Positions 15,287 to 55,109 of a stretch of DNA of 64,000 bases are shown here, piece by piece. Made by a program: the position numbers and the translations under genes. The notes under the pieces are model-generated. The model was not told the origin of the DNA and did not search any database. It saw nothing but the letters and a program-made list of their open reading frames with translations. The DNA is from Gammaproteobacteria bacterium (GTDB taxonomy: Bacteria > Pseudomonadota > Gammaproteobacteria > JADZEE01). The stretch covers positions 70,341 to 134,340 of the forward strand of contig CBDDBH010000020.1 in NCBI GenBank assembly GCA_965225625.1, in the 5' to 3' direction. Position 1 is the stretch's first letter; every line of letters starts with the position of its first letter.

Positions 15287-16144
15287 CTACGACTGAATGA
15301 ACTTCATCACAACCTCATCGTGCTCTTCCGGTCGCTCCCATTGCGGCCAATGGGCTGCGCCCTTGATTACGTATAGCTCCGATCCCTTAATCAGGTTTTG
15401 GATGCGCTTCGCCTCGTCGACGCCGGCGATGGGATTTTTTTCCGTCCACAGCAACAGCGTCGGCGCGGTTATCTTGGCCAATTCCTCATCGGTAAACAAA
15501 TAATTGTCGCACTCAGGAGAAAACAGCTTTTCGTAATATTCCTGCAACGCCGCGCGGGTCTGCTCCCGCGACCAAAGATTGCGTCGCAACTCGACCAACT
15601 CCTCGGTCACGCCACCCAGCGGCATCAACCACTCCAGCCGCGCGCGGATTAATTCCTCCGACGGATTGTTCAAAGCATTGAGCGAAGTTTCACGTAGCCC
15701 GGCTAAATCGGCGACGCTGCCTTCATCAGCCGGTTGTTTCTGGCCCCAGGCGGTGTTGAGGATGAGCTTCTCGACGCGCTCGGGATGATTGATGCCGACG
15801 TCCATCGCGATCCAACCGCCGAGTGATTCACCTTCGAAGATCGCCTTCTCCGCACCGATTTCATCCAACAGTTCCAGTATCTGCTCGGTAAACTGTTTCA
15901 GCCAATTGCCTTCACGATAAGGCGGCGCAGACGACAAGCCATGCCAGCTGAAGTCCGGCGCCATCGGCCGGCCGACGGTGGCGAGGCGGTTCATGTTGCG
16001 GGAGTAGGTCTCCGCATGACCGCCACCACCGTGCATCAGGATCAGGGGAATGCCCTCTCCCGCCTCGATCACCCGCGTGCGGAAATTCTTCGTTTGGTAG
16101 TAGCGGGTCTCGGTACCGAGAAGGTCAATGTGAATGCTGGACAT
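15287..16144 (-). CDS. Alpha/beta hydrolase, meta-cleavage-product (C-C bond) hydrolase (BphD/HsaD/MhpC-like).
   Basis: GESLGG nucleophile elbow. Adjacent to the extradiol dioxygenase. Confidence 0.7.
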   Translation of the reverse strand: MSSIHIDLLGTETRYYQTKNFRTRVIEAGEGIPLILMHGGGGHAETYSRNMNRLATVGRPMAPDFSWHGLSSAPPYREGNWLKQFTEQILELLDEIGAEKAIFEGESLGGWIAMDVGINHPERVEKLILNTAWGQKQPADEGSVADLAGLRETSLNALNNPSEELIRARLEWLMPLGGVTEELVELRRNLWSREQTRAALQEYYEKLFSPECDNYLFTDEELAKITAPTLLLWTEKNPIAGVDEAKRIQNLIKGSELYVIKGAAHWPQWERPEEHDEVVMKFIQS

Positions 16145-16287
16145 AGGGCAAATCCTCAGTTGTTATTCTTATCCGGACGTAGTTTGTAGCATCATCGCGA
16201 ATTCACTGTCAAAACTAGCCGCACGCTAGCAACCCTCAGAGGCGGCGCTGGGGGGAACATCCCCAGACGTGGCGTGGCCTGCCAGGT

Positions 16288-17625
16288 CTACAGCCCGACC
16301 TCGTCGCGTGTGCGGGTACAACAGTCAATAATCGAATAAATAATCGATTGGCACGGTCCAATCAGATCCGGAATCTTGATGACGCCCATGCCGCCGAGGC
16401 CTTCGGTGAACTCTTCCGGAAAATCAACGTCGTCACCGACCCATGGATAGCCGGTACGCACCAGCGGTATTCCGAGCTGACAGATGGTGGCGGCATCCGT
16501 CTGTCCGGCCATTTTGGGAGCGTCAGAATAGGGCTTGCCGTGGCGCTCTTCCCAACCACGAATTGCCGATTGCACAATCCAGTGGTCGGGACTGGTACGC
16601 GAGGCGCGGCAAGACACATACATTTCCCATTCCGCTTCGACGTCGTCATGGCGGGCAACGATCTCTTTCATCACCGCACTAAACTCAGCTTCGATATCGG
16701 CGTTGGTTTGATCAGGCGTCGTGCGTACGTCGAGATAGATCTCCGTTGCCGCAGAGGGAAACGCAGGTTTTTCCGGCCATCCCGAGCGAACTGCGGAGAT
16801 CCAACCCTCCCCTCGGATTTGAGCAGATTCGTGGGTGTTCGGATATTCGCTCAGCCACTGTTCCAGATCCAAAATCACTTTGGCCGCCGGCACGATTGAG
16901 CTTCTAAACCCGGGTACGCCGCGTGGGATCCCGGCGTAGCCCATCGTGCCCCAGGTGGTTACTTTGAACCAGGCCATACCGGGATGCTCGTAATACACCT
17001 CGTCCCATGGTTTGAAAATGATACCCATATCCGGCGCCACACCGTGAGAGAGCATATGCATGACGCCGCTGCTGATCCCGTAATTGTCTCGTTCGGGCAC
17101 AAACCACGGCATCCCGCCGCCGCAGCCGGCCACGATGAGATCGCCTTTCAACTCCAGGCCGGCGTCAACCACGCACGTCGCCGCTTCGGTCAGCGTGCAT
17201 AACATCGATTTCGGGTTGGACGCACCGAGTCCGAACACCGTATCACCCTCGCTGTAGGATTCCGGCAACATATCGGCCCGCAGTTCGGGGCCAACCCAGG
17301 GAATATCGACATCAGGATCGGCTTCAATGTGTGTATCGATAGGCGCGTAAAGCATTAACGTGGGGCCTTCGCCGCTACCCTTTACGTAGCCGACACAGTT
17401 GCCGGACATCTCGTTCACGGGCTGATAAAAGGCATCGATACCAACACCGTTCATATAGTGGACCATATGCTCACTGGCTTCCCTCTCGGCACCGGTGGGG
17501 CTGTGGATCCCGGTCAAATCGAGAACCGACTGCTGCAGCCGTTGCGGATTAATCTTTGCGCACGCGGCCTCGTAGCACTGGCGTTGCTCGGCAGACAGTT
17601 CATGTGTATCAGTTTTTTTATCCAT
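16288..17625 (-). CDS. M20-family metallopeptidase / deacylase (ArgE/DapE-like).
   Basis: M20 dimerisation and catalytic motifs. Start taken at MDKKTDTHEL, which has a GAGG RBS. Overlaps or abuts the amidase gene. Confidence 0.6.
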   Translation of the reverse strand: MDKKTDTHELSAEQRQCYEAACAKINPQRLQQSVLDLTGIHSPTGAEREASEHMVHYMNGVGIDAFYQPVNEMSGNCVGYVKGSGEGPTLMLYAPIDTHIEADPDVDIPWVGPELRADMLPESYSEGDTVFGLGASNPKSMLCTLTEAATCVVDAGLELKGDLIVAGCGGGMPWFVPERDNYGISSGVMHMLSHGVAPDMGIIFKPWDEVYYEHPGMAWFKVTTWGTMGYAGIPRGVPGFRSSIVPAAKVILDLEQWLSEYPNTHESAQIRGEGWISAVRSGWPEKPAFPSAATEIYLDVRTTPDQTNADIEAEFSAVMKEIVARHDDVEAEWEMYVSCRASRTSPDHWIVQSAIRGWEERHGKPYSDAPKMAGQTDAATICQLGIPLVRTGYPWVGDDVDFPEEFTEGLGGMGVIKIPDLIGPCQSIIYSIIDCCTRTRDEVGL

Positions 17626-43455: not shown

Positions 43456-45403
43456 ATGCGCAGTGCCCACCGGACGCTGGGCGTTGTCGGCCTTATCTGG
43501 TCGGCGGCGGCACCTGTCCAAGCTTTTTATCTAACCGAAATCCATGGCGAGTCCGCGCTCGGCGAACCGCTTGTCGCCTGGGTAGAGGTGTTTGATGCGC
43601 CTACCGAGAATCTTGAAGAAGCTCGAATCGAAATTCTGCCGGCGTTGGAGTACGCAAACAATCCGGAAATGATGGGTCTAATAGCCGATCTAGGCACGAA
43701 TCTAGTCTTATCTGATAGCGGACGTTCATACATCGAAATAAAAGGTAGCCGCGACGTCGGCGAACCTATTATTGCCCTTTCGCCTCAAAGTTAGTCTCGG
43801 AAACTTTACCAGAACGCGAAGTTACACGTTGTTACTTGATCCCCCGAGGAGGAGTAGTCGGTCAGCGACTTCGGCGCGCGCTCAACCGGCGACTGCATCA
43901 TCCAGTTTGAGATTGAGCAAAGCTGCGTGGCAGGGTGGATCCTACGGCCCAGTGCAACCGGGCGATGCCTTGTGGGAGATTGCCAGAGACATAAAGTCGG
44001 AGGATGTTTCGGTTCAGTCGACACTGACGACGCTACATCGGGCGAACCCGGATGCCTTCATCGACGAGAACATTAATCGTCTAAAAGTTGGCGCGATGTT
44101 AGCTGTCCCCGACTTTATTGACGCGGACATCGAGCGGGCACCAAGGGCGGCTGCGGCAATGGCTCAAGGCGGAACGTACGGTCCGGTAGCACCGGGAGAC
44201 ACGCTTTGGTGGATCGCAAAGGCAGTACAGGCCGACGGTGTTTCATTTCAATCAACGCTCACCGCGCTGCATAGCGCCAACCCCCACGCCTTCATCAACA
44301 ACAACATCGACCGACTTAAAACCGATGTTATTCTGACTGTTCCCAATCTACTGGCCGGGCAGGTCGAGGCTGTTCGTACGACCTTGCCGAGTGAACCTGG
44401 GTCAGATGAGGTGTTCGAAGCTCAGATCCTGCCCAAGCCGGATGAAACTTACATCGCACCGATTTACGTAACGCCAGCGACGAGTACTGAACTTGTAACT
44501 GCCCTGCCTGACTCGGCTCCCGAAATTGAGGCGGACTCCAGTATCGCGACGATCGAAGAAACTGAAAGTCCCGCGCAAGCGCATCAGGTTGTCGCTGAGC
44601 TCGCTCCCAGCGTATTTCCACCGCAGCGTGGGCAAGAGAATCTATCTGCGGTCGTGGAGCCGCAGATTGAGGTTCCGGTTTCAGTCGAACGCGAAAGCAG
44701 CGCACCACCACCGACCAAAGCAGCATCGCCGACGTCGACCACTGCACCAGAACTCGCAAGTGTCGATCCTTCGAGTAAGCCGAAATCGACATTTAATCCC
44801 GTCGTCGTAATCGAACTTGGCGCGATTATTCTGTTGCTGGTCACGATCGCATTGCTCTTTGCGCTGCGCACCCGCAGGGAAGTTCGTGTGGAAAGAATAC
44901 GGCACGAAGACCGCCGGAACGAAGAAGCCCGGAGAAAGCAGTTAGTCATCGAGAAGGCAGAGCAGCGAGTCGCGCTCGAAGCTGAACGTAGCGCTTCGAA
45001 ACAACCGGTGGAAACAACGAACACACCAGCGGAAGCGCCGGCCGCACAAGATGAGCAGTCTTCAGTCAATGCTAAATCGGTAGCCCCCGGGGAATCGGCT
45101 ATTGGAGAAATAGAGCGACACATCGCCAGTGGGCAATACAATCTGGCCGAACAAGTCGCGCTGGATATTATCGATGACACTCCCCGCAATCATCATGCAA
45201 AACTGAAGCTCGCGGAACTCTATTTTATGATTGAGCGCGTGAATGACTTCGTTCGCATTGCCGATGACCTGCACAACAATCACCGCGCATTTATTAGCGG
45301 CGAAGATTGGGATCGGCTAATACACATGGGTAAGCAGATCGGCGCAGATCACCCTCTATTTACCGGTCCTCAACAGGTTGACTTCGATATCACCAAGCCC
45401 TAG
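43456..45403 (+). pseudogene. fimV: FimV/HubP-family pilus assembly protein, with an apparent 1-bp frameshift near 43770.
   Basis: Signal peptide plus LGEPLVAWVEV..., then SYTLLLDPP (the FimV hallmark) in the next frame. Two LysM-like repeats (YGPVxPGDxLWxIA), a TM segment, an acidic region, and the FimV C-terminal domain (AKLKLAELYFMIERVNDF). The frames switch at 'ccctttcg'. Confidence 0.7.
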
Positions 45404-45469
45404 CGCTGAAAGTCTCTTGCCGGAAACCCGGTAAACGTTGCCAGTTTGTTAATTTATAGGATGCCGGAG

Positions 45470-45505
45470 AGAGCATTCGAACCTCCGCCCTGCTGACAGG
45501 CGTTT
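45470..45505 (-). other. Degenerate tRNA-Thr-like 3' fragment (pseudo-att site).
   Basis: tgccggagagagcattcgaacctccgccctgctgac is about 70% identical to the 51-bp tRNA-Thr 3' repeats at 51.0 and 51.9 kb. The T-arm no longer pairs. Confidence 0.3.
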
Positions 45506-45741
45506 TTGCAGCCTGTCTTTACCCGCCATGTGTACACCTTCTTAGATATTGGTATGTTTAATCGGATGGGTCACAGTTACTCGGCGAGGGAATGAGTCGC
45601 CGGATCACGGCGAACTAGAACCACAGGCCAACTATTAGGAGTAGCACAATGACGGGAATACGGCATGTTGTCTATACTTAGGGTATGAGGGGCAGTGACG
45701 CAGCCATGACGGCGATAGAGGTACAACTTGTGAAGCGTATG

Positions 45742-46209
45742 CAGGCAATTGTCGCTACAATTCTCCTTTTCGCTTGCACCGTAATCGCGGAAGAAAACGA
45801 CAGTTCAAGAGCAGTGTATCTACGATTCGTTGGTCCACCGGATCAGTCATTTATTGCTCCAAAGCCACCACGAACCCAACGAGTCGTCTTTATCCGTGAA
45901 CGCGTTATCGAGGGTCGTCCTCAGCGGCAGCGGAATCCCCAGGTAACACCGGAGCACCTGCTCGTGATCGCATTAGACGACAGTGAGTCTGAACTAGTAC
46001 GAGAAATCATCCCAGATCCCCGGATGGTTCGAGCAGAATTTGTGGACAGCCGAGGGCGGTTCAGATCAAACAGGTGGTACAACAGCAGTGTCGAATTTTC
46101 GGTTTTGCTGCCAAACAATTCAGCTATTGTCGAGCTGGAACTCTATCATCCCGAGTGGACCGGGGAGACATACGACATGCAGTTGGTCGGCAGAACTCAA
46201 CTTCGCTAA
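45742..46209 (+). CDS. Hypothetical secreted protein.
   Basis: Signal peptide MQAIVATILLFACTVIA from the internal ATG. No recognisable family. Immediately upstream of the M64 peptidase gene. Confidence 0.35.
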   Translation, partial: QAIVATILLFACTVIAEENDSSRAVYLRFVGPPDQSFIAPKPPRTQRVVFIRERVIEGRPQRQRNPQVTPEHLLVIALDDSESELVREIIPDPRMVRAEFVDSRGRFRSNRWYNSSVEFSVLLPNNSAIVELELYHPEWTGETYDMQLVGRTQLR

Positions 46210-46239
46210 AGCAGTAGAAAAATTAGCTTTTCAACACGA

Positions 46240-48843
46240 ATGCGAACACGAACGCTCAGATGTTGCCGTGAGTTACTTATACTAGCTCTTGCATGCGCTA
46301 TACAGTCGGCATACAGCGAACCCGTCACCAAAATTCTCAACAACGGAGATGCGAAGAATCGTATTGATATTGTGGTAATGGGCGATGGATTTACGACAGC
46401 CGAATTAAGTGCTTTTGCGACCGCTGTGCAGACCTTGTTCAACGGTTTCTTCGATGAAGAACCGTTTAAAGAATATAAGTCCTATTTCAATGTACACAGA
46501 ATTGACGTTGTAAGTACTGATTCAGGAATAGATCACCCTGAAAACAACGTGTTCAAGGAGACGGCACTAGGCGGGCACTTCAATTGTACCGGTATACAGC
46601 GACTTATTTGCGTAGACGCCAGCAAGGTTAATGTTGTCTTGGATAACAGCGTGGCAGCAGACGAACGAGATATTATACTTGTCATCGTAAATGACCCGCA
46701 GAGCGCAGGCACCGCTCAGAGCGGCATCGGAATTGTCACGACTCACGCCGACTATATAGACATCACCCTACATGAGCTCGGACACAGTTTTGGACTTCTC
46801 GGCGACGAATTCGAGACCAATCCCCCGCCGTGCATCAACAACATTGAGCCATTTCAAGTAAATGTTACCAAGGAGACCGACCGCAATCTCATCAAGTGGA
46901 ACACTGAAGGTGGCCCGCCTACCGGTTGGATAGATAGCAATACCTTAGTGCCGACGACTAGCACAACCGATGGAGTGCCCGGGTTATATGAAGGCGCTAA
47001 ATTTTGTTCTTCAGGCCTATACCGGCCAACGCATGAGTCGAAAATGCGTGTTTCAAGCAAGCCTTTTGAGCAAATCAATGAAGAACAGCTCATAAAACGC
47101 ATTTACAACTTTGTGTCGCCAATTGAAACAATCGATCCGGTCAATCTTGACGTAATACTCGAACAAGGAGCGAGTACAACATTCCGGATAACGACAATGT
47201 CTCCTCCGACACAAAGTCTTTCGATTGCGTGGTCATTGAATGGTGCGGCGCAAGGAGCGGGGCTCGAGTTCACATTGAACACGACTGGCCTGACCCCGGG
47301 CATTTATAACGTGAAAGTCGTGGTAAAGGACCAAAACCCTAAGGTGCGTAACGACCCTGATGGCGAAATACCTGAAACTCTCGAATGGAGGGTAGCGGTT
47401 CAGGACAACGATGGAGTATCTGAGGCGCCGCTAGCTGATCAAGACCAGCCGAATGTTTCGACCACTGGTGCGGGAACCGCCATCGGTCTGACGACTAACA
47501 ATTCGCCGCAAAAGGTCGCGCAAACTGTCACCGCTGGCCGCGCCGGATTTCTTGCAGAAATCCGACTCCTGGTTGCATGCACATCGGGAGATTTGGACGT
47601 CGAAATACAGCGCGTAACAGCTGGCAATCCGGACGGCACAGTACTCGCTTCAGAAACTGTTCCTGGTTCCGCAATACCGTTTCCTCGGATCTTCAGGAGG
47701 GTCATCTTCTCGAATCCTGCATTTTTCCCGGTAGGGGGCCAGTTCGCGATAGTTTTGAAATCAGCAGGAAGCTGCGGCATCGACCGCGGTCTCGCCAAAA
47801 CAGAAAGCCAAACACATGCCGAAGCAGATTATTACACATCAGGAACTGCGTTTTTTGCGAATGCCGCTATCCCCGAGTGGTCTTCGCTTAACAATAGTAC
47901 CGCCGGAAAGGACTATCCTTTTCAGACGCTGGTCCCGTTGGACAATTGTCCATTTGTCGCGAACCCGACCCAAGCTGACTTTGACAATGACGGTGCCGGT
48001 GATGCCTGCGACGACAGCGATAGTGATGGAGTCGTCGACGCTGACGATGCCTTCCCTGGCGATCCGAATGAAACAGTTGATACCGATAATGACGGCACCG
48101 GAAATAATGCCGACACTGACGACGATAACGACCAGGTACTGGACACCCAGGACGCGTTCCCACTCGATGCCAACGAATCGGTAGATACCGATAGTGACGG
48201 CACCGGCAATAATGCCGACACTGACGACGATAACGACGGAGTGCTGGACACCCAGGACGCTTTCCCACTCGATGCCAACGAATCTGTGGATACCGATAGT
48301 GACGGCACCGGGAATAATGCCGACACGGATGATGACAACGACGGGGTGCTGGACACCCAGGACGCTTTCCCACTCGATGCCAACGAATCGGTAGACACCG
48401 ATAATGACGGCACCGGCAATAATGCGGACACCGACGACGATAACGACGGGGTGCTCGACACCCAGGACGCGTTCCCACTCAATGCTAACGAATCGGTGGA
48501 TACCGATAGTGACGGCACCGGCAATAACGCCGACACCGACGACGACAACGACGGTGTGCTGGACACGACGGATGCGTTTCCGCTTGATCCCGCCGAATCG
48601 GTGGATACCGATAGTGATGGCGTCGGCAATAATGCCGACACGGACGATGACAATGACGGGATGCCGGACAGCTTTGAGACGGCAAATAATTTTGATCCCT
48701 TGAATGCCGCAGATGGGAGCCAGGACGCAGATGGCGACGGCTTTACGAATGAACGGGAATTTCGCGCAGGCACAGATCCACACGACGCCAACTCGATACC
48801 CAAGGGCTCACTGTTCTGGCTTCCGCTGATATTGGACGAATGA
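46240..48843 (+). CDS. M64-family (IgA-peptidase-like) zinc metallopeptidase fused to 6-7 thrombospondin type-3-like Ca-binding repeats.
   Basis: DIVVMGDGFT and HELGHSFGLLGDEF (HExxH) are the M64 motifs. The C-terminal half is repeats of DTDxDGxGNNADTDDDNDGVLD, a TSP3 DxDxDGxxDxxD pattern. Confidence 0.7.
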   Translation: MRTRTLRCCRELLILALACAIQSAYSEPVTKILNNGDAKNRIDIVVMGDGFTTAELSAFATAVQTLFNGFFDEEPFKEYKSYFNVHRIDVVSTDSGIDHPENNVFKETALGGHFNCTGIQRLICVDASKVNVVLDNSVAADERDIILVIVNDPQSAGTAQSGIGIVTTHADYIDITLHELGHSFGLLGDEFETNPPPCINNIEPFQVNVTKETDRNLIKWNTEGGPPTGWIDSNTLVPTTSTTDGVPGLYEGAKFCSSGLYRPTHESKMRVSSKPFEQINEEQLIKRIYNFVSPIETIDPVNLDVILEQGASTTFRITTMSPPTQSLSIAWSLNGAAQGAGLEFTLNTTGLTPGIYNVKVVVKDQNPKVRNDPDGEIPETLEWRVAVQDNDGVSEAPLADQDQPNVSTTGAGTAIGLTTNNSPQKVAQTVTAGRAGFLAEIRLLVACTSGDLDVEIQRVTAGNPDGTVLASETVPGSAIPFPRIFRRVIFSNPAFFPVGGQFAIVLKSAGSCGIDRGLAKTESQTHAEADYYTSGTAFFANAAIPEWSSLNNSTAGKDYPFQTLVPLDNCPFVANPTQADFDNDGAGDACDDSDSDGVVDADDAFPGDPNETVDTDNDGTGNNADTDDDNDQVLDTQDAFPLDANESVDTDSDGTGNNADTDDDNDGVLDTQDAFPLDANESVDTDSDGTGNNADTDDDNDGVLDTQDAFPLDANESVDTDNDGTGNNADTDDDNDGVLDTQDAFPLNANESVDTDSDGTGNNADTDDDNDGVLDTTDAFPLDPAESVDTDSDGVGNNADTDDDNDGMPDSFETANNFDPLNAADGSQDADGDGFTNEREFRAGTDPHDANSIPKGSLFWLPLILDE
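48060..48680 (+). repeat. Intragenic near-identical 120-bp tandem repeats (about 6 copies) that encode the TSP3-like units.
   Basis: gacaccgatagtgacggcaccggcaataatgccgacac... recurs with only a few substitutions per copy. It also generates long spurious antisense ORFs. Confidence 0.7.
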
Positions 48844-48891
48844 ACGCAAAATGGGCAAACGAAACGTGCGGGTTTTGGGGGACACCGTTCG

Positions 48892-49064
48892 CGGGTTTTG
48901 GGGGACACCGTTAACTTATTAACTTAATTTTCGGTTTTTGAGAGCCCATCGATGTCCAGGGTTGCATCCAACACAATTCGAACGCCCCCGCTTATCCGTG
49001 TCATCCAAAAAGATCGTCCGTCGCTTTAAGTTAATAAGTTAACGGTGTCCCCCAATTTCCCGTT
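48892..49064. repeat. MITE-like element: imperfect ~36-bp terminal inverted repeats around a 98-bp core, with a 23-bp tandem duplication at the left end.
   Basis: Left arm 48898-48927 ttgggggacaccgttaacttattaacttaa equals the reverse complement of right arm 49026-49055. 48868-48889 and 48891-48912 are direct repeats. The element is intergenic, between the M64 peptidase and the amidohydrolase. Confidence 0.5.
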
Positions 49065-49177
49065 CGTAGTTAGCTCTGGTTAGCCGGACCCGCCACGCCC
49101 GCGCACTAGCCCAATAGGATTTGGAGCACCGCTCCGGCACACGAAAAATACCGCCGTCCGGTGCATAATCACGCTCT

Positions 49178-50968
49178 ATGCGTCGCACGGATAGATGTAG
49201 GGCTTCGGTACGTCCGCCCGGTACGTGGCAGGCCCTGCGCCTCCTGCACATGCTGTACCTGCTCTGGTACGGCATGGCTCTACAGGCGCAGTGTCCGCCG
49301 GCCGAGCAACGCGGCGCGCCCGCGGACCGGTTGTACGTCCACGGCACCGTGCTGAGCATGGACGAGGCCATAGGCACTGCGACGGCCGTGGCTGTGCGGG
49401 ACGGCAGGATCGCAGCCGTCGGTGACGACGATGCTGTTTCGTGTCTGCAGGGGCCCTCCACGCAGGTGACCGATCTGGTGGGGCGTACGCTGCTCCCCGG
49501 GTTCATAGACTCCCACTCGCATCTGGCCTATGTCGGTATCTACAACGAACACGCTGCGCCACTGTACGGTCCGCCCATCGGCACGGTCGACTCGATGGAA
49601 GGACTGTTGGCGGCGCTGCGCGACCGGGCAGCTGCAACCCCGGCTGGTGAATGGGTCTATGGGGTAGGCTACGACGACACGACGGTGCGCGAACGACGCC
49701 ACCCTACGCGCCATGATCTGGACCGCGTCTCCACGCGCCACCCCATATGGCTTTATCACATGTCGTTTCACTATGCGGCAGTCAACACGCTCGGACTGAC
49801 GCGACTGGGCATTACCGCGGACACGAAGGATCCGGCGGGCGGAACGGTACACCGGGATCCGGGCACACGAGTGCCAAACGGTTTGCTTGAGGAAGGTCCG
49901 GCCCTGCAACTCGGGTTCGGTTACGATCTGCCCATCACGGATGAGGAGGCCATCCAGGCTATCCGAGGCGCTGCCGACCTATACGCGAGCCGCGGATTTA
50001 CAACGGCGCAGTCGGGGCAAGCGAGCGTCCGCCAGTTTCAATTGATGCAACGCGCCTACACCGAAGATGCGTCCCCCTCGGTGCGCTTGATGGTGTATAC
50101 GGACCGTCCCGCCACAGCGGAACTGCTGGCGGGCCGTCTGCAGCCAGATCCCGCCGTCCATCCGGATATGATGCGCATTGCGGCGGCGAAGCTTTTCGCC
50201 GACGGCGCGATCCAAGGCTATACGGCCTATCTGCGCGAACCCTACTTCCGGCCGCCCGGGGACAAAGCGGATTTCCGGGGATATCCGCAGCAGACCATAG
50301 AGGAACTCACGGACACTCTGTCCACGTACTGCCAGCAAAGTCTGCGCGTGGCGGTGCACGCAAATGGCGATGCGGCAATCGATCAGGTTCTCGATGCCTG
50401 GGACAATGCGCGCCGCGCCGTCGGCCGCTGCGACGATCGCCTGGTCATCATCCACGCGCAAATGGCCCGTCGAGAGCAACTCCAGCGCATGAAGGTGCTC
50501 GGCGCCATCCCATCCTTCTTCATCCTGCACACGTATTACTACGGCGACGCGCATATTGCCCAGTTCCTCGGCCGCGAACGCGCTTTCGAGATCTCCCCGG
50601 CGCGCTGGGCGCGCGACCTCGACATCCCCTACACCATTCACATGGACTCACCGGTGGTACCCGTAAACGCTCTGGATCTGCTGTGGGCGGCCGTCCGCCG
50701 CAACACACGCTCGGGCGTGGTACTCGGACCAAAACAGCGTGTCGATGTCCTCGATGCGCTGAAAGCAATGACCATCAATGCTGCCTGGCAGTACCGCCAG
50801 GAAGACGTTAAGGGATCCGTAACGCCGGGAAAGTTCGTAGACCTCGTTGTGCTCTCGGCGAATCCGCTCGTCGACCCTGGGGGGATCCGCGACATCCGCA
50901 TCGAGGAGACCGTGCTCGGCGGGCGCGTCGTCTATCGGCGGAATCAGGCCCGAGACGCCGGCGAATAA
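49178..50968 (+). CDS. Amidohydrolase-family (Amidohydro_3-like) metal-dependent hydrolase.
   Basis: LPGFIDSHSHL metal-binding motif and the VAVRDGRIAAVGDD N-terminal domain. Start uncertain (49178, 49250 or 49274). Confidence 0.7.
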   Translation: MRRTDRCRASVRPPGTWQALRLLHMLYLLWYGMALQAQCPPAEQRGAPADRLYVHGTVLSMDEAIGTATAVAVRDGRIAAVGDDDAVSCLQGPSTQVTDLVGRTLLPGFIDSHSHLAYVGIYNEHAAPLYGPPIGTVDSMEGLLAALRDRAAATPAGEWVYGVGYDDTTVRERRHPTRHDLDRVSTRHPIWLYHMSFHYAAVNTLGLTRLGITADTKDPAGGTVHRDPGTRVPNGLLEEGPALQLGFGYDLPITDEEAIQAIRGAADLYASRGFTTAQSGQASVRQFQLMQRAYTEDASPSVRLMVYTDRPATAELLAGRLQPDPAVHPDMMRIAAAKLFADGAIQGYTAYLREPYFRPPGDKADFRGYPQQTIEELTDTLSTYCQQSLRVAVHANGDAAIDQVLDAWDNARRAVGRCDDRLVIIHAQMARREQLQRMKVLGAIPSFFILHTYYYGDAHIAQFLGRERAFEISPARWARDLDIPYTIHMDSPVVPVNALDLLWAAVRRNTRSGVVLGPKQRVDVLDALKAMTINAAWQYRQEDVKGSVTPGKFVDLVVLSANPLVDPGGIRDIRIEETVLGGRVVYRRNQARDAGE

Positions 50969-51018
50969 GCGGTCCACGATGAGGGGTTGTCTTTGCCGCT
51001 AGGAAAGGACGCCGCTTG

Positions 51019-51069
51019 AATGGTGCCGGAGAGGTGACTCGAACACCCGACCTACTGATTACGAATCAG
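51019..51069 (-). repeat. tRNA-Thr(CGU) 3' fragment (anticodon stem through CCA); direct repeat copy 1, an att-type site.
   Basis: The minus-strand read cctgattcgtaatcagg-taggtc-gggtgttcgagtcacct-ctccggc-a-cca folds as anticodon arm (anticodon CGT), T-arm, acceptor 3' strand and CCA. No D-arm or 5' acceptor follows. Confidence 0.7.
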
Positions 51070-51239
51070 GGGCCCGAGTATCATCTAACCCTTTGACAAA
51101 ATTGAATATTCTTCTCATTTGATTGTCCCTTGTTTGCGTCAATTTGCCTCCTAAAACCCCTGCTTGTCGAGTTTGCTCAGCTCCCGCCGATGACGTTACG
51201 CAAGTCCGTCAGTAAGCTAGCTTTTGTCTGGACACGATT

Positions 51240-51542
51240 TCACGCAGCCCGAGCACGTACTTCGTTTTTCAAGCGGTCGCCGAGCTGAATGCGGGCTTCC
51301 TCCAGGTCGTAATCGGCCTGAAGGCCCATCCACAAGGTCTCCGAAGTACCGAAATAGCGTGCCAGTCGAAGTGCCGTGTCGGCAGTTACGGCTCGCTTCC
51401 CGTGCACGATCTCATTGATGCGGCGTGGAGCCACACCGATCTCGCGTGCGAGCCGGTTTTGGCTGATCCCCATGGGGATCAGAAACTCGTCCAATAGCAC
51501 TTCTCCGGGATGAATGTTTTGCAGCCGCACCATGAGCTTCAC
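51240..51542 (-). CDS. higA: HigA antitoxin (XRE-family HTH).
   Basis: The LSQNRLAREIGVAPRRINEIVHGKRAVTADTALRLARYFGTS helix-turn-helix. Immediately downstream of higB with a 3-bp gap. Confidence 0.8.
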   Translation of the reverse strand: MKLMVRLQNIHPGEVLLDEFLIPMGISQNRLAREIGVAPRRINEIVHGKRAVTADTALRLARYFGTSETLWMGLQADYDLEEARIQLGDRLKNEVRARAA

Positions 51543-51545
51543 CTT

Positions 51546-51827
51546 TCAGTGATAATCTACAATCTCTACATTGCGAGCGTTGCCCCGCTGCCAGACGAAG
51601 CAGATCCGCCACTGTTCATTAACGCGGATACTGTACTGTCCCGCTCGACCACCTTTCAGGCGTTCGAGCCGGTTGGCTGGCGGAATGCGCAGGTCATCCA
51701 GGGAACGCGCGTTGTTCAGCATACGTAGCTTGCGGCGCGCTATTTGTTGAATGTCCTGAGGTAGCCGCCGCGAACGCTGCCCTTGCCAGATCTTCTCAGT
51801 TTCCCTTCCCTGGAAGCTTTCGATCAT
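51546..51827 (-). CDS. higB: HigB toxin (RelE/ParE superfamily, 'plasmid maintenance system killer').
   Basis: 93 aa with LKGGRAGQYSIRVNEQWRICF...VEIVDYH, a HigB-type sequence. Toxin-first gene order. Confidence 0.8.
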   Translation of the reverse strand: MIESFQGRETEKIWQGQRSRRLPQDIQQIARRKLRMLNNARSLDDLRIPPANRLERLKGGRAGQYSIRVNEQWRICFVWQRGNARNVEIVDYH

Positions 51828-51834
51828 TGGCGAA

Positions 51835-51872
51835 CTATAACGCGTTGCGTTATATAACGCAACGCGTTATAG
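51835..51872. promoter_or_regulatory. Perfect 38-bp palindrome 8 bp upstream of the higB start; candidate HigA operator / promoter.
   Basis: ctataacgcgttgcgttat|ataacgcaacgcgttatag was checked base by base and is perfectly symmetric. It contains two AACGCGTT sub-palindromes. Confidence 0.6.
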
Positions 51873-51904
51873 CCCTAAGTAAGAGATTTCGTTAACGCCT
51901 TGTA

Positions 51905-51955
51905 AATGGTGCCGGAGAGGTGACTCGAACACCCGACCTACTGATTACGAATCAG
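51905..51955 (-). repeat. tRNA-Thr(CGU) 3' fragment; direct repeat copy 2 (identical 51 bp).
   Basis: Base-for-base identical to 51019-51069. The flanks differ on both sides. Confidence 0.7.
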
Positions 51956-52137
51956 TTATATAACTATTCTCCGTTATCGATCTCAGTCCATCCGGTTCAA
52001 TAACTGGTTAATTATCCGATGGATTAAATCTATTTACATCCACTTGCATCAAGGGCGTGCGACGGGTATCTTGGCGTTGGGGTGACATAATGGTGACGCA
52101 GATGGACGGTGCCTCATCCCTCAACCAGGAGCACGCC

Positions 52138-53301
52138 ATGCTGACCGAACGCATCATCCGGGACGCCCAACCCGAGCCGAAAACCCGCATCCTGTGGGAC
52201 CAGGAGGTGAAGGGCCTGGGTGTCCGCATCACGCCGAAGGGTACGAAAGCCTATGTGCTCGACTACCGAATGCACGGCCGCCGCCATCGTGTGGTGCTGG
52301 CCCGAACGGCCGAGATCTCCTTGGAGGAAGTCCGCAAGCGCGCCGGTGCCGAGCGGGTGCGGATCCGCGCCGGCGAGGGCGATCTGCTGACGCGGCGGCG
52401 CGAGGCGCGTGCGTCACCCACGGTGACCGAGGGATTGGAGCGGTTCTTCGCCGAATATGTGCCGACGCGGCTGGCAGCGGGCCGCATGGCTCAGGGTACG
52501 GTCGATAGCTATCGCCAACAAGCTGCCCGATACCTGCGGCCTGCCCTTGGCCGGCGGCAGATCGCCGACATCACGCGCCACGACATCGAGCGCATGGTGG
52601 CGCCGCTCGCGACGGTCGCACCGGTGCAGCGTAACCGCGTGCTGGCGTTCACGAGCCGGCTGTTCCGGTTGTTCGAAGATTGGGAGCTGCGCCCGCAGCA
52701 CACGAACCCTACGCGGGGTATCGAGCGGGCGCGTGAGGAAGCGCGTGACCGGGTGCTCACGCCGTCGGAGATGACGGCACTCGGTGCGGCGCTGGCACGC
52801 GCGGAGAAGGACAAGCCCGCGGCCGTAGCGGCGATCCGGGTGGCGGCCCTGACGGGTCTGCGCATTGGCGAGGTGCTGGCGATGCGCTGGGAGCACTTAG
52901 ACACTGAGCACAAAGCCGTGGTGCTGCCCCACACGAAGACCGGGCGGCGCGTGCACGGCCTGCCCGCGGCGGCGCTCGAGCTGCTCGCGGGCCTGCCGCG
53001 CATCAACGGCTACGTGTTCACCACCGGACGCGACGCGGCCATTACGTATCAAACGGCCCACGCGGCCTTCGCAACCCTGGCGCGCGAAGCCGGCCTGTCG
53101 GACGTGCGCCTGCACGACCTGCGCCGCACGGTCATGACGAGCGCGGCGCGCGCGGGGGTCGGCACCCATGTACTACGCGACCTGCTCGGGCACAAGACCA
53201 CGGCGATGGCCGACCGCTACATCCGGCATGCCGGCGCGGCGGTTCACGAGGCCCAGGAGCACATCGGCGCGGCCATCGACGCGCAGCTGCGGGGCTTATG
53301 A
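52138..53301 (+). CDS. int: Tyrosine-type site-specific integrase (P4-like, with a DUF4102 arm-binding N-domain).
   Basis: ILWDQEVKGLGVRITPKGTKAYVLDYR (DUF4102-like) followed by the catalytic R...HDLRRT...Y region. Start taken at ATG 52138, which has an AGGAG RBS. Lies beside the att repeat. Confidence 0.85.
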   Translation: MLTERIIRDAQPEPKTRILWDQEVKGLGVRITPKGTKAYVLDYRMHGRRHRVVLARTAEISLEEVRKRAGAERVRIRAGEGDLLTRRREARASPTVTEGLERFFAEYVPTRLAAGRMAQGTVDSYRQQAARYLRPALGRRQIADITRHDIERMVAPLATVAPVQRNRVLAFTSRLFRLFEDWELRPQHTNPTRGIERAREEARDRVLTPSEMTALGAALARAEKDKPAAVAAIRVAALTGLRIGEVLAMRWEHLDTEHKAVVLPHTKTGRRVHGLPAAALELLAGLPRINGYVFTTGRDAAITYQTAHAAFATLAREAGLSDVRLHDLRRTVMTSAARAGVGTHVLRDLLGHKTTAMADRYIRHAGAAVHEAQEHIGAAIDAQLRGL

Positions 53302-53332
53302 TGGCGCCCGATACACGACGGAGGTTGGTTCG

Positions 53333-54133
53333 ATGAGCGGAACGGAGACCCCTCCTGAGCCGATCGAATGGTGCCCGCAGTGCGGTTCGCCGGTGATGAC
53401 GCCGGCGAACGTGCCCATGAGCGTGGACGCCGGTATGTGCCCAACGTGTGGGCAGAGCCCGATGGCGGCGGTTGTTCAGGACCTCTACGGCCCGGACACG
53501 AATCTGGGCGAACATCGAAGAAAGCTTATCGAGTACTTATCGGAGCTGACTAGGCTCCAGGAGCGCCGGAAAGAGGAGGATCTGCCCCCGTCCTATCAAG
53601 AGGCCGTGGACCTCGTGAAGCGGTATCCCTGGCCCGACCCTGAAGACCCCGAGGCTTGGGCCACCTTTGGGCTCATTTTACACTGTGTGATCTGGGTGGA
53701 TGGACAAGGGATGCTGATAGAAGAGCGCATCCGGGAGTTGCTTGAAGTCTGGCGAGACGAAAGCGAGCGGAAGTGGGATCGATTTTGGGTGCAGGAAGCG
53801 CTCGAAAAAATCGCAGCTCAGGCGCAGAAGGATCATCCACTCGCCGTTGAGATCTTCCAACGGCTGGCGAGCGGACGCCTCAACCGTCCGAGAGGTCGGT
53901 GCGATCCGCGGACAGATGAGGTTCGCAATACGAGTGTCGTCACGGTGATCGGGCATTTGCAGAGCCTGGGCATGAATCCGACGCGAAATGAAGTGAGCCC
54001 GGAACATTCCGCGTGCGATGCGGTCGCGGAAGCGACCGACTTGGAGTTGCCGACGGTCGAGACGATTTGGAAGCGGCGGACGGGCACGCAAGCAAACCGA
54101 CACAGGACCAGGGGGCAGTACGATGGGGCATGA
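53333..54133 (+). CDS. Hypothetical protein with an N-terminal zinc-ribbon (CPQCG...CPTCG).
   Basis: GGAGG RBS. Two CxxC pairs 25 aa apart. The C-terminal ~200 aa is acidic and helical with no known family. Overlaps the next gene by 11 bp. Confidence 0.45.
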   Translation: MSGTETPPEPIEWCPQCGSPVMTPANVPMSVDAGMCPTCGQSPMAAVVQDLYGPDTNLGEHRRKLIEYLSELTRLQERRKEEDLPPSYQEAVDLVKRYPWPDPEDPEAWATFGLILHCVIWVDGQGMLIEERIRELLEVWRDESERKWDRFWVQEALEKIAAQAQKDHPLAVEIFQRLASGRLNRPRGRCDPRTDEVRNTSVVTVIGHLQSLGMNPTRNEVSPEHSACDAVAEATDLELPTVETIWKRRTGTQANRHRTRGQYDGA

Positions 54134-55109
54134 CCTTTTCCAGGGCAGCATGGCGTTCGTGGGCGAGACACCGTGGCACCGCCTCGGCACGGCGGTTGAA
54201 TCACACATAACAGCGGAGCAGATGATGTGCGCGGCCAATTTGGATTGGCAGGTTCAAAAAGAGCCCGCCCCCGGCGCTCGGCTGCTCGATGCAGGCAGGA
54301 AAGTCTACGACCGGTACATCGTGCTGCGTGACCCGGTGGGTGACGAGACCGAGGCGGTCGCGCTCGCCATCGTCGGCAAGGATTACGAGTCGCTCCAGAA
54401 CAAGGATGCGTTCACGTTCTTCGAGCCCTTCATTGACAATGGCTGGGCCGAGTTCCACACAGCGGGCGCGTTGGGCAACGGCGAGCGGGTTTGGGCGCTG
54501 GCGCGGCTGTCGGAACAAATGGTCATCCATGGGGACGACCCTGTCGATCGCTTCCTGCTGCTCTCCAACTCCCATGACGGGTCGAGCGCCGTCACTGTGC
54601 GGTTCACGCCGGTCCGAGTCGTCTGCCAAAATACGCTGAGCCTCGCACAGGCGGGCGGGACGGGGGTCGTGTCCGTCCGTCATACCCGAAATATTCGCCA
54701 CAATCTGAAAAAAACCCAGGCGCAAGCATTGAAGCGTCTCTCCGATGCGGTATTTGCTGAGGCCGGATCCCTGTTCGCTTGCATGGCAGAGTGCAGTGTG
54801 GCGCCCGCAGCGGTAGACGGTTATCTAGAGACGCTGTTTCCGAGGACTCGCCGGCAGAAGACCCAAGGTCTGGAACCTGAGCGGTGGGGCCGCGTGAAGC
54901 AGATCCTTGGCGACGACACCGTCACGCCGTCCGCGACACGCGAGACGCTGTGGGCGCTCTACAACGCGGTCGTTCGGGATGAAGACTACCGCCGTACCCG
55001 CGAAGTGACCCGGGATGCACGATTGGAACGCGTGTGGTTCGGGCGCGGCTATGACTTGAAACGCAAGGCGCTTGAAACGGCCCGAGCTCAGTTGGCGAGC
55101 GCCGCCTGA
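54123..55109 (+). CDS. DUF932-domain protein (a mobile-element-associated family).
   Basis: The LLLSNSHDGSSAVTVRFTPVRVVCQNTL block is recalled from DUF932. About 328 aa from MGHDLFQG. Confidence 0.6.
   Translation: MGHDLFQGSMAFVGETPWHRLGTAVESHITAEQMMCAANLDWQVQKEPAPGARLLDAGRKVYDRYIVLRDPVGDETEAVALAIVGKDYESLQNKDAFTFFEPFIDNGWAEFHTAGALGNGERVWALARLSEQMVIHGDDPVDRFLLLSNSHDGSSAVTVRFTPVRVVCQNTLSLAQAGGTGVVSVRHTRNIRHNLKKTQAQALKRLSDAVFAEAGSLFACMAECSVAPAAVDGYLETLFPRTRRQKTQGLEPERWGRVKQILGDDTVTPSATRETLWALYNAVVRDEDYRRTREVTRDARLERVWFGRGYDLKRKALETARAQLASAA

Follow-up and report, generated by a model that had tools for sequence, protein, structure and literature searches.

A higBA pair between two tRNA-derived direct repeats

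The window analyzed here, a 64,000-nt stretch of a gammaproteobacterial contig, contains an 886-bp unit (the islet) in which two identical direct repeats, F1 and F2, enclose an interval of 835 bp (51070-51904). As the initial annotation had stated, nothing lies in this interval beyond higB, higA, and a perfect palindrome of 38 bp: ORF and domain searches agree on this content, the one other ORF of 70 aa or more is an overlapping antisense frame, and the same searches found no recombinase or transfer genes in the islet. To its right lies an integrative element (element A). The features of the locus and its surroundings are:

45462-45496, minus strand: F0, possible older, decayed tRNA-Thr-like 3' fragment, directly downstream of fimV
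51019-51069, minus strand: F1, left 51-bp 3' part of tRNA-Thr(CGU), anticodon stem to CCA plus TT, exact repeat
51070-51239: spacer of 170 bp from F1 to the higA stop codon, no ORF
51240-51533, minus strand: higA, antitoxin of 97 aa with ATG at 51533, XRE/HTH_3
51546-51827, minus strand: higB, toxin of 93 aa, PF05015
51834-51862, minus strand: predicted higB promoter, -35 TTGCGT at 51862-51857 and -10 TATAGT at 51839-51834
51837-51870: two adjacent 17-bp operators, ATAACGC-N3-GCGTTAT, proximal 51837-51853 and distal 51854-51870
51873-51904: spacer of 32 bp from the operator region to F2, no homologue
51905-51955, minus strand: F2, right 51-bp 3' part of tRNA-Thr(CGU), exact repeat, junction with element A
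51956-61671, plus strand: element A, integrative, G+C 0.63-0.71, assigned from Pfam, PHROGs, and composition
61978-62010, minus strand: F3, 33-mer resembling the T-arm and acceptor of a different tRNA, GCCGG TTCGAAT CCGGC CCCCCGCA, from a T-arm scan, 5/5 stem pairs

Between the repeats, the order is 32 bp, a conserved 633-bp module (operator-higB-higA), and 170 bp. The 170-bp spacer holds no ORF, terminator, or structure (folding z-score 0.62), has no nucleotide match in ~100 related loci, and shares no significant k-mers with element A; the 32-bp spacer is likewise without a homologue among ~100 related loci. Three independent metagenome assemblies from different samples (L001-L003) share this arrangement, with F1 identical in all of them, and the islet occurs once per genome seen, always at this locus. 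In four assemblies both genes are complete and uninterrupted, the sole change being I26V in HigA of L002.

The repeats are 3' fragments of a tRNA-Thr gene

F1 and F2 are 51 bp long and 100% identical. The proposal that they comprise the part of tRNA-Thr(CGU) from anticodon stem to CCA is borne out by a tRNA-Thr(cgt) that ARAGORN calls in a MAG of Pseudomonadota (L004, 2357-2432): the repeat corresponds to it base for base over positions 28-76 plus two trailer bases. F2 matches this tRNA from position 26, with tRNA identity extending to 51957. A 49-mer core occurs in two exact copies in the window (51021-51069 and 51907-51955) and gave 0 matches across 100 shuffles. Identity stops sharply on both sides: the 10 nt beyond the repeats on the CCA side match only partially (61 nt at 93%), and on the anticodon side the flanks of F1 and F2 show no similarity. 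F2 scores 28.3 against the Rfam tRNA model, below the threshold of 29, and is not called by ARAGORN. A sub-threshold Rfam tRNA match at 51912-51973 was rejected as fragment F2 plus chance pairing.

Both fragments lie on the minus strand, the correct orientation for a displaced island-end fragment. For tRNA-targeting integrases, a displaced 3' tDNA fragment marks the end of the island, and the anticodon stem is the commonest crossover sublocation of tRNA-targeting tyrosine integrases (Islander, PMC4383910). Because identity begins exactly at the anticodon stem and strain divergence switches inside F2 (see below), the initial view of the repeats as integrase-type cores is supported, and F1 and F2 behave as att-type junctions, F1 being the core on the side opposite element A. 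They are not parts of a larger duplicated segment, the possibility raised as a check on that view.

A toxin-first HigBA pair

The toxin gene comes first: higB (51827-51546) is followed on the same strand, after a 12-nt gap, by higA (51533-51240). HigB matches PF05015 over profile positions 2-91 of 91 (73.5 bits, cut-off 27, 2e-20), phrog_3066 ('toxin of TA system'), GraT (6F8S_B, 4e-26), and Proteus HigB (2e-06). Its C-terminus (...EIVDYH) can be aligned to those of GraT and Proteus HigB, and DYH is the catalytic motif of the latter. By these matches, HigB is a member of the RelE-fold ribosome-dependent endoribonuclease family. HigA matches Pfam HTH_3 (6.8e-12), PaHigA (7CSV/6JPI, ~3e-20), GraA (6F8S_A, 2e-16), and Proteus HigA (1e-12); at the positions of the PaHigA base-specificity residues T40 and D43, counted on the alignment, islet HigA has R and E. 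An alternative higA start (GTG at 51542) would give 100 aa; the gene is called as 97 aa in L001-L003. The PF05015, HTH_3, GraT/GraA, and PaHigA matches agree with the initial identification and support a bona fide toxin-first HigBA pair of the GraTA/PaHigBA type.

Two putative operators overlap the predicted higB promoter

The palindrome spans 51835-51872 and is perfect, with arms of 19+19 nt, no loop, and 0 mismatches; it ends 7 nt before the higB ATG at 51827, not 8 bp as first reported. The chance expectation for such palindromes in 64 kb is ~2e-7 by our own arithmetic (4^-19 per position). An Rfam match to 'MIR6217' at 51832-51875 is an artefact produced by the palindrome. The initial annotation had parsed the sequence as AACGCGTT half-sites around TTATATAA; comparison with ~90 homologous loci revealed instead two adjacent 17-bp ATAACGC-N3-GCGTTAT repeats, which together with flanking CT/AG make up the 38 bp. 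This pattern has only two matches in the window, the two operators themselves, both with 0 mismatches; the pattern scan found no further HigA operators elsewhere in the window, for example before the integrase gene. Homology to all higBA relatives begins at 51872-51870, and the half-sites are kept in register with the start codon as the spacers vary (L032-L037, L035, L058).

The predicted higB promoter has a -35 to -10 spacing of 17 nt. A generic promoter scan missed it because the -35 box matches the consensus at only 3/6 positions; the relatives' own consensus there is TTG.c, and a -10-like hexamer (at least 5/6 to TATAAT) lies 5-7 nt before the start codon in 51 of 91 unique relatives. Since the ATG is only 6 nt beyond the -10 box, the higB transcript is probably leaderless or near-leaderless. 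The operators cover both the -35 and -10 boxes of this predicted promoter. Conservation of the promoter-overlapping half-sites across relatives thus supports the earlier suggestion of a candidate HigA operator, in the form of a conserved operator region with predicted autoregulation. For a widespread HigBA branch, the comparison thereby supplies a binding-site model (two copies of ATAACGC-N3-GCGTTAT) and predicts a leaderless transcript.

Element A is bounded by the right-hand core

Element A is ~9.6 kb long, with its right end somewhere in 61672-62210. A 182-bp arm is followed by a P4-type integrase gene (52138-53301), DUF932, a Toprim/DUF7146 primase-like gene, unknown genes, and a PrimPol-D5_N primase-helicase gene (to 61513). 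The integrase has a P4-type Arm-DNA-bind_3 N-terminus (PF13356) and matches phrog_1; the element has no conjugation genes. When L002 is compared with the window, the 8-kb left flank and the islet together differ by ~5 SNPs (~0.06%), whereas 39 SNPs per 500 bp are found rightwards from 51947 and ~4-8% divergence over element A. The switch at 51947 falls in the anticodon loop of F2. Element A is therefore a separately exchangeable unit, and the comparison places its boundary in the tRNA core; the low divergence across the islet indicates that the islet belongs with the chromosome. Homopolymer indels distinguish the window from related contigs, suggesting long-read sequencing errors.

The int-proximal junction lies at the same place in four integrase loci of 77-95% identity (L002, L112, L030, L031), all of which keep a junction motif, TGA-N7-AATCA, that resembles the anticodon stem-loop. 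A search for element-A-like loci beside an intact tRNA-Thr led only to three of these (L030, L031, L112; 77-82% integrase identity), which occupy non-tRNA sites, so we infer the Thr-core specificity of the integrase of element A from the present locus alone.

Element A has a Thr core at one end only. For its right junction, core searches with mismatches, a CTGA-N7-TCAG pattern, and arm-shared k-mers gave nothing significant; a candidate match at 61403-61415 was rejected as inverted and inside the primase gene. Homology of the F1-side spacer to the int-upstream arm of element A was not convincing.

Search for the target tRNA and for empty sites

ARAGORN and Rfam found no intact tRNA in the window. 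The adjoining 10 kb to its right, reached via L005 and L006, contain no intact tRNA-Thr, and neither a second Thr core nor a tRNA 5' half was found to the right of element A in the window or those 10 kb. These results speak against the simple tandem array at this tRNA locus envisaged initially, as does the single Thr core of element A. A scan for the exact core in 185,579 species genomes returned one match, in another organism, and a scan of viral contigs returned none. Neither relatives of the amidohydrolase nor exact-protein look-ups turned up a strain lacking the islet or element A; the look-ups for the integrase, DUF1329, the amidohydrolase, P0001, P0002, and P0003 gave no matches. The amidohydrolase is without close relatives (next best 52%), and a 78% partial match in L113 is not syntenic.

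Two further tRNA-like fragments lie nearby. F0, which was also picked up by the T-arm scan, is 71-74% identical to F1/F2 and has a Smith-Waterman score of 30 against tRNA positions 39-73 (best unrelated match, 25), a weak hint of a decayed tRNA-Thr core. Were F0 such a core, 45497-51018, with an M64 peptidase and the amidohydrolase, would be a further island in the array. F3 lies at or near the right end of element A; its G-run length varies between assemblies, and neither ARAGORN nor Rfam, even at a lax threshold, recognizes it as a tRNA.

Surroundings of related higBA loci

The closest relative (L032, 88% HigB identity) starts 11 nt after the end of an apparent tyrosine-integrase gene, in L070 higBA follows, on the same strand, an integrase C-terminus confirmed by Pfam, and a tRNA lies within 400 bp in five other higBA loci. 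The HigBA family thus does ride on integrative elements, at their att-proximal ends. In 9 of 61 relatives, higBA lies between exact direct repeats of 30 bp or longer, a situation seen in 1 of 232 shifted controls and in none of 419 window controls. The bracketing repeats are heterogeneous, comprising attC, REP, and paralogous genes. The higBA pairs of L090 and L102 belong to true integron cassettes, set in attC arrays that show R''/R' ends. L023 carries a 647-bp insert with only higBA and a 30-bp repeat of a gene start, and L038 likewise has a small target duplication with only higBA; the flanks in L023, L038, and L068 are duplicated pieces of ordinary genes with no att sign. HigBA relatives also occur on plasmids (534 records).

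Origin of the islet

We favor, with a probability of roughly 0.55, the reading that the islet is a CIME-like unit without an integrase: the remnant of an element that targeted tRNA-Thr, of which only the addiction module is left and to which a second element is joined in tandem. The islet has cores at both ends and no integrase or transfer genes, as in the published definition of CIMEs and of CIME-IME accretion (PMC5704250); with no recombinase or transfer gene and att-type cores on both sides, it fits this class. The data show how the locus is built, that the cores derive from a tRNA, to which families HigB and HigA belong, that the operators are conserved, and that element A ends in the core; from there we infer the following course. 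An ancestral genomic island would have been integrated by a tyrosine integrase at an anticodon-loop site of a tRNA-Thr(CGU) gene and would then have shrunk to the autoregulated higBA addiction module and two att-type cores. Element A, using the same core, may later have integrated at the tRNA-proximal core, a tandem accretion yielding the order F1 - higBA - F2 - int. HigA dimers would bind the two operators over the -35 and -10 boxes and repress the operon. If F1 x F2 recombination or a more extensive deletion removed the islet, stable HigB would be released from labile HigA, which would favor retention of higBA as the rest of the ancestral element decayed. The relatives L032 and L070, with higBA directly behind an integrase gene, lend indirect support to an origin by decay.

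Several observations fit this reading less well. Since a tRNA-Thr or second core is missing to the right of element A, the accretion model must assume an extra rearrangement, and the 32-bp and 170-bp flanks, lacking homology to element A or any other element, preserve nothing that points directly to a larger ancestor. Two deletions ending near the cores, with both cores left perfect, are also not the most parsimonious course. The non-tRNA sites of the integrases of 77-82% identity weigh against the reading too, as does the failure to find a strain lacking the islet or element A. Of the initial reading, the att junctions, HigBA, and the conserved operator region stand, the half-site parse is replaced, and the evidence speaks against the simple tandem array; reduction from a larger element and stabilization of the array, both proposed there too, are hypotheses.

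A doubtful alternative is that the higBA unit is a minimal mobile cassette, an 886-bp circle with one tRNA-Thr core that a tyrosine integrase already present, for instance that of element A, inserts and excises in trans; int-F2-higBA-F1 would then be an integron-like platform on tRNA-derived att sites, parallel to attC-bounded TA cassettes. The compactness of the unit (32 bp, 633-bp module, 170 bp) fits this idea, and so does the topology, as the integrase reads away from the adjoining core, beyond which lie core-separated units. Real integron cassettes among the relatives (L090, L102), the higBA-only target duplications in L023 and L038, and the excess of long direct repeats around relatives (9/61 vs 1/232 and 0/419) point the same way. 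Yet a single copy per genome was seen, always at this locus, and the islet is conserved at chromosome level while element A turns over. P4-type integrases with an arm-binding domain normally require arm sites in attP, and the islet contains no similarity to the arm of element A, whose integrase is of this type (PF13356). The repeats around relatives are moreover too heterogeneous (attC, REP, paralogous genes) to be evidence for a single mechanism. That the HigBA subfamily, as a 633-bp module, is a specialized hitch-hiker of attC, tRNA att-core, and target-duplication arrays, with the locus an integron-like platform and the higBA unit a movable cassette, is very improbable; if true, it would explain the long exact direct repeats around ~15% of relatives.

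RecA could have inserted circular or plasmid DNA bearing higBA beside a 3' piece of tRNA-Thr (an attP region, say, or a fragment that had been excised) into a resident tRNA-Thr copy by one Campbell-type crossover through the 51 bp, with no integrase involved. A single crossover would duplicate precisely the shared segment and leave perfectly identical repeats, as seen here; HigBA relatives are frequent on plasmids, and L023, L038, and L068 are flanked by ordinary-gene duplicates without att signs. Against this stands the start of the shared block exactly at the anticodon stem, like the identity blocks of integrase att sites, so that the donor segment would itself need an att origin. Efficient RecA recombination has a minimum homology close to 51 bp, which puts the repeats near the limit, and an integrase element bounded by the same core adjoins the islet; we judge this route improbable. 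As for a misassembly where tRNA sequence is repeated, or a tandem duplication that arose locally without site-specific recombination, homopolymer indels relative to related contigs are the one point in favor. Both cores are present in three independent assemblies from different samples, nothing within the 835 bp is duplicated except the cores, and the core is unmatched in 100 shuffles; an artefact or coincidence is effectively refuted.

Comparison with known systems

The remnant reading places the islet beside the CIMEs related to ICESt1/ICESt3 of Streptococcus thermophilus, which likewise lack integrase and transfer genes and occur in tandem accretion with ICEs or IMEs (PMC5704250, citing Pavlovic 2004 and Bellanger 2011); the islet, too, adjoins an element, element A, whose integrase would act at the shared core. 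The islet is far smaller (886 bp) and carries a TA pair as sole cargo; its partner lacks conjugation genes, and there is no regenerated target tRNA at the locus.

TA 'islets' standing alone in chromosomes are frequent, and the route by which they arrive is debated; 'islets' without mobile-element signs and a model of MGE acquisition followed by streamlining have already been described (PMC13617665, citing Hayes & Van Melderen 2011). The present locus shares with them a solitary type II TA pair in a high-turnover region, where the pair persists as its neighbors change. In contrast to those 'islets', it keeps two att scars in perfect form, a sign of integrase-mediated entry. With both scars and a neighbor on the same core, it offers a testable intermediate for entry on an integrative element and subsequent streamlining. 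Addiction modules also ride on site-specifically integrated elements in mosAT of SXT (PMC2654960) and HipAB of CGI48 in Shewanella (PMC8978831); those protect a large functional element, whereas here nothing is left but the TA pair itself.

Islander tRNA islands resemble the islet in that the ends of units carry 3' tDNA fragments that all point the same way; the anticodon-centered class is the commonest (PMC4383910). Unlike these islands, the islet has no integrase, is shorter than 2 kb, and lacks an intact tDNA closing the array; element A does have an integrase. Islander accepts an island only if it encodes an integrase and is 2 kb or longer (PMC4383910), so standard pipelines would not report the islet. 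This is a blind spot: finders of this type drop intervals that are integrase-less or below 2 kb (PMC4383910), and such units go uncounted.

The integron TA cassettes of L090 and L102 share with the islet a compact, promoter-bearing TA unit bounded by recombination sites in an array beside a tyrosine recombinase gene. The Vibrio superintegron carries higBA and other TA pairs as gene cassettes, and the role proposed for such cassettes is protection of the array against deletion. The islet differs in having tRNA-derived cores rather than attC hairpins (no R''...R' site) and a neighboring P4-type integrase with an arm-binding domain rather than IntI with attI; no cassette shuffling was seen at the locus.

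GraTA of Pseudomonas putida (PDB 6F8S) and PaHigBA of P. aeruginosa (PDB 6JPI/7CSV) likewise have the toxin gene first, a RelE-fold HigB with C-terminal DYH, and an XRE-HTH HigA; a predicted leaderless mRNA sets the islet apart. The operators of PaHigA and GraA bind two dimers at TAAC/GTTA half-sites (PMC6987408). The islet operator resembles them in length (~30-38 bp), TAAC/GTTA-type half-sites, promoter overlap, and room for two dimers (PMC6987408), and differs in its ATAACGC half-sites, arranged in two 17-bp inverted repeats rather than around a central TTAAC-GTTAA. The islet is thus a neat case of a known phenomenon rather than a new type of system, and it leaves current concepts unchanged.

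The islet and its tRNA-derived borders

The initial annotation had described identical direct repeats of the 3' end of tRNA-Thr(CGU), and these are borne out base for base. Two exact 51-bp copies, F1 (left) and F2 (right), occur in the window and bound the islet, an 886-bp unit carrying higBA; a 49-nt query located exactly these two sites and had 0 matches in 100 shuffles.

Features of the islet
51019-51069 and 51905-51955, minus-strand sense: F1 and F2, the 51-bp repeat, reading CTGATTCGTAATCAG...CTCTCCGGCACCATT
51240-51533, minus strand: higA, 97 aa, XRE-type
51546-51827, minus strand: higB, 93 aa (PF05015, 73.5 bits, whole profile covered)
51837-51853 and 51854-51870: two candidate operators, the sole matches to their pattern in 64 kb
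51862-51857, higB strand: predicted -35 box TTGCGT, inside the operators
51839-51834, higB strand: predicted -10 box TATAGT, after a 17-nt spacer, inside the operators

Each repeat runs from the anticodon stem-loop, with anticodon CGT, through the variable region, T-arm and 3' acceptor strand to CCA plus two trailer bases. An exact scan with one genome per species returned a single match, in a Pseudomonadota MAG: a tRNA-Thr(cgt) called by ARAGORN, to which identity extends from position 28 (26 for F2) to two bases beyond CCA. Identity is lost abruptly on the anticodon side and drops to ~60% within 10 nt on the CCA side. With identity confined in this way, the repeats do not mark the ends of a longer duplicated segment, the alternative that the initial annotation had considered. 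The same arrangement is present in three independent metagenome assemblies at an identity of at least 99%.

The 835 bp between F1 and F2 had been proposed to hold only higB (toxin first), higA and a palindrome, and ORF and profile analyses agree. The nearest solved structures are GraT/GraA of Pseudomonas putida (6F8S; 4e-26 for the toxin) and P. aeruginosa HigA (6JPI/7CSV; ~3e-20); Proteus HigB/HigA is more remote than either, and the HigB C-terminus, ...EIVDYH, aligns with both GraT and Proteus HigB. More than 30 unrelated loci share nucleotide homology that begins at 51872-51870 and ends at the higA stop codon (51240), limits that delineate a 633-bp evolutionary module in which higB and higA follow the operator. 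The rest of the islet, 32 bp at 51873-51904 and 170 bp at 51070-51239, yielded no relatives, ORF, terminator or unusual folding.

Operator and promoter

The 38-bp palindrome at 51835-51872 is perfect, as first noted; the initial parse of its half-sites does not hold, because AACGCGTT is not what relatives conserve as a unit. When the 70-nt regions preceding higB were compared across 91 distinct relatives, the closer ones (L032-L037, L035, L058; 69-88% HigB identity) showed two adjacent inverted repeats, ATAACGC-N3-GCGTTAT, kept in register with the start codon. The half-sites are conserved and the 3-nt spacers vary (GTT/ATT/TTG/CTT and AAC/TGT/ACA/GCA/ATC/GGT), the pattern expected for protein-binding sites. 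PaHigA and GraA bind as two cooperating dimers to a 28-bp operator with TAAC/GTTA-type half-sites (PMC6987408), and the four-half-site, 34-38-bp operator predicted to bind HigA here would fit this two-dimer mode. The perfect 38-bp palindrome is found in the window only; in relatives the two 17-bp operators carry unrelated spacers, so that the overall symmetry is imperfect. A sub-threshold Rfam match to MIR6217 at 51832-51875 is spurious and corresponds to the operator palindrome.

The higB ATG lies 6 nt past the predicted -10 box, and 51 of the 91 relatives have a TATAAT-like hexamer (at least 5/6) ending 5-7 nt ahead of the start codon; a leaderless or nearly leaderless higB mRNA thus looks like a family trait. 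A generic promoter scan did not call the higB promoter because its -35 box matches at only 3/6 positions.

Element A and its boundary

To the right of F2 lies element A, a 9.6-kb integrase/primase element (51956 to at least 61671) with a G+C content of 0.63-0.71 vs ~0.56 in the rest of the window and with neither capsid nor conjugation genes.

Features of element A
right of F2: 182-bp arm, before the integrase
52138-53301: P4-type integrase (Arm-DNA-bind_3 + Phage_integrase)
after the integrase: DUF932, a Toprim/DUF7146 primase-like gene, unknown genes and a PrimPol-D5_N primase-helicase ending at 61513

One of the three assemblies, L002, carries a diverged allele of this element. Over 43947-51946, an interval that takes in the left flank and F1 as well as the entire islet, L002 differs from the window by ~5 SNPs and one IS insertion; the islet itself has one SNP (HigA I26V). 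From 51947, in the anticodon loop of F2, divergence rises to 39 differences per 500 bp and remains 4-8% as far as 61671, the position of an IS in L002. The other two assemblies, L001 and L003, differ from the window by SNP clusters restricted to element A. The jump at 51947 indicates that element A is exchanged as an independent unit with the tRNA core as its left boundary, and that the islet belongs with the chromosome.

The integrase-proximal junction falls at the same position in four other integrase loci (L002, L112, L030, L031; 77-95% identity), where an invariant TGA-N7-AATCA mimics the anticodon stem-loop. This shared junction supports the core as the site of element A's integrase. No tRNA gene adjoins the integrase relatives inspected. 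Several integrase paralogues of 92-95% identity lie on one 4.59-Mb contig (P0001-P0003), and L006, a locus extending further to the right, has a second, truncated copy (16020-17258, 86%) 6 kb to the right, its upstream end cut by a group II intron fragment. Between-strain SNPs are concentrated inside the integrase gene (52138-53301) and at 55.5-57 kb, a distribution suggestive of recombination among the copies.

Against L005 and L006, 52108-63769 shows 10-14 single-base indels, many of a single G, and in the window alone these indels split the primase-helicase (60817) and a DUF1329 gene (62621, 63163) into several ORFs; they are probably sequencing errors in one assembly, not pseudogenes. A sub-threshold BjrC68-like Rfam match at 61204-61307 is spurious, lying within primase-helicase coding sequence.

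Flanks of the array

Element A ends somewhere in 61672-62210. Accretion would place an intact tRNA-Thr or a second core there; neither was found right of element A, whether in the window or over a further 10 kb, and a scan of the whole window detected no intact tRNA. The sole tRNA-like feature of 61672-62210 is a 33-mer at 61978-62010 (minus strand; GCCGG TTCGAAT CCGGC CCCCCGCA) that resembles a T-arm plus acceptor, is unlike Thr in sequence and is called by neither ARAGORN nor Rfam; its G-run varies in length between assemblies. Further right, IS elements, group II intron fragments and another truncated A-like integrase make a secondary rearrangement plausible, though unproven.

Genes left of F1
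M64 peptidase: neighbour gene
amidohydrolase: G+C-rich, without close relatives

On the left, a 35-nt stretch directly after fimV (45462-45496, minus strand) is 71-74% identical to the Thr core and may be an older, decayed scar; if so, 45497-51018, with the peptidase and amidohydrolase, would be another island in the same array. The peptidase gene contains six tandem 105-bp repeats (47920-48744; 66-86% identity), which are thrombospondin type 3 repeats. Between peptidase and amidohydrolase (48868-49055), a 22-nt tandem repeat (48868-48912) extends into one arm of a perfect inverted repeat of 30 nt (48898-48927/49026-49055). Near these repeats, at ~49194-49202, L003 carries an IS66 insertion; in L002, one lies within the peptidase gene.

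Genomic settings of related HigBA pairs

The survey covered loci with 45-88% HigB identity, 80 from metagenomes and 22 viral. At five, an intact tRNA gene (Phe, Asn, Gln or tRNA-Thr(CGU)) lies within 400 bp of higBA (L050 2968-3042; L058 5634-5708; L035 905-980; L097 305-380; L103 4754-4827). The L050 and L058 loci are nearly identical to each other and come from another organism; there, tRNA-Thr(CGU) is convergent, with 33 nt separating it from the end of higA, and the far side of higBA showed no partial tRNA copy. In the closest relative (L032, 88%), higBA starts 11 nt past the end of an apparent tyrosine-integrase gene (L032 1-88; ...RRYTHLRAEDL...*), and in L070 a Pfam-confirmed integrase C-terminus (3-362) precedes higBA by 176 nt and has the same orientation. 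Thus, the int-higBA arrangement recurs.

Exact direct repeats of 30-106 bp flank the pair in 9 of the 61 loci with enough flank, compared with 1/232 shifted positions in the same loci and 0/419 in the window and other loci. They include genuine integron attC arrays (L090, L102), REP-like sequences (L061, L105), paralogous flanking genes (L095, L096) and duplicated target-gene pieces around little more than higBA (L023, L038, L068), among them, in L023, an insert of 647 bp flanked by a 30-bp repeat of a gene start. By this survey, the HigBA branch is a habitual stand-alone passenger of recombination-site arrays.

Origin of the islet

The best-supported reading, with a probability of about 0.55, is that the islet is a CIME-like (cis-mobilizable element) remnant of a tRNA-Thr(CGU) island, later joined by a second element that shares its core. 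The island would have entered tRNA-Thr(CGU) by recombination in the anticodon loop and shed all but the addiction module and two cores, and a second element using the same core would then have joined. Searches among available relatives turned up neither a strain lacking the islet nor one lacking element A.

That a resident integrase moved a TA-only cassette in trans is unlikely: the unit is compact and direct repeats flank related pairs, but the islet is one fixed copy and arm-like sequences are absent. We consider it improbable that a RecA-mediated single crossover through the 51-bp homology produced the layout. An integron-like platform built on tRNA-derived cores, with the HigBA branch as a specialised array hitch-hiker, is a distant prospect. 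The same layout in three independent assemblies excludes an assembly artefact for practical purposes.

HigBA, its operator logic, tRNA-att scars, CIMEs, TA islets and integron TA cassettes are already known; the locus unites these parts unusually cleanly and minimally, in 886 bp that carry a TA pair alone and keep both att cores perfect. Such units are dropped by design in standard island finders, through an integrase filter and a 2-kb filter (PMC4383910), and this type of islet escapes them. The remnant reading matches the published definition of CIMEs and CIME-IME accretion (PMC5704250) and, among chromosomal TA islets, the model of acquisition on a mobile element followed by streamlining (PMC13617665).
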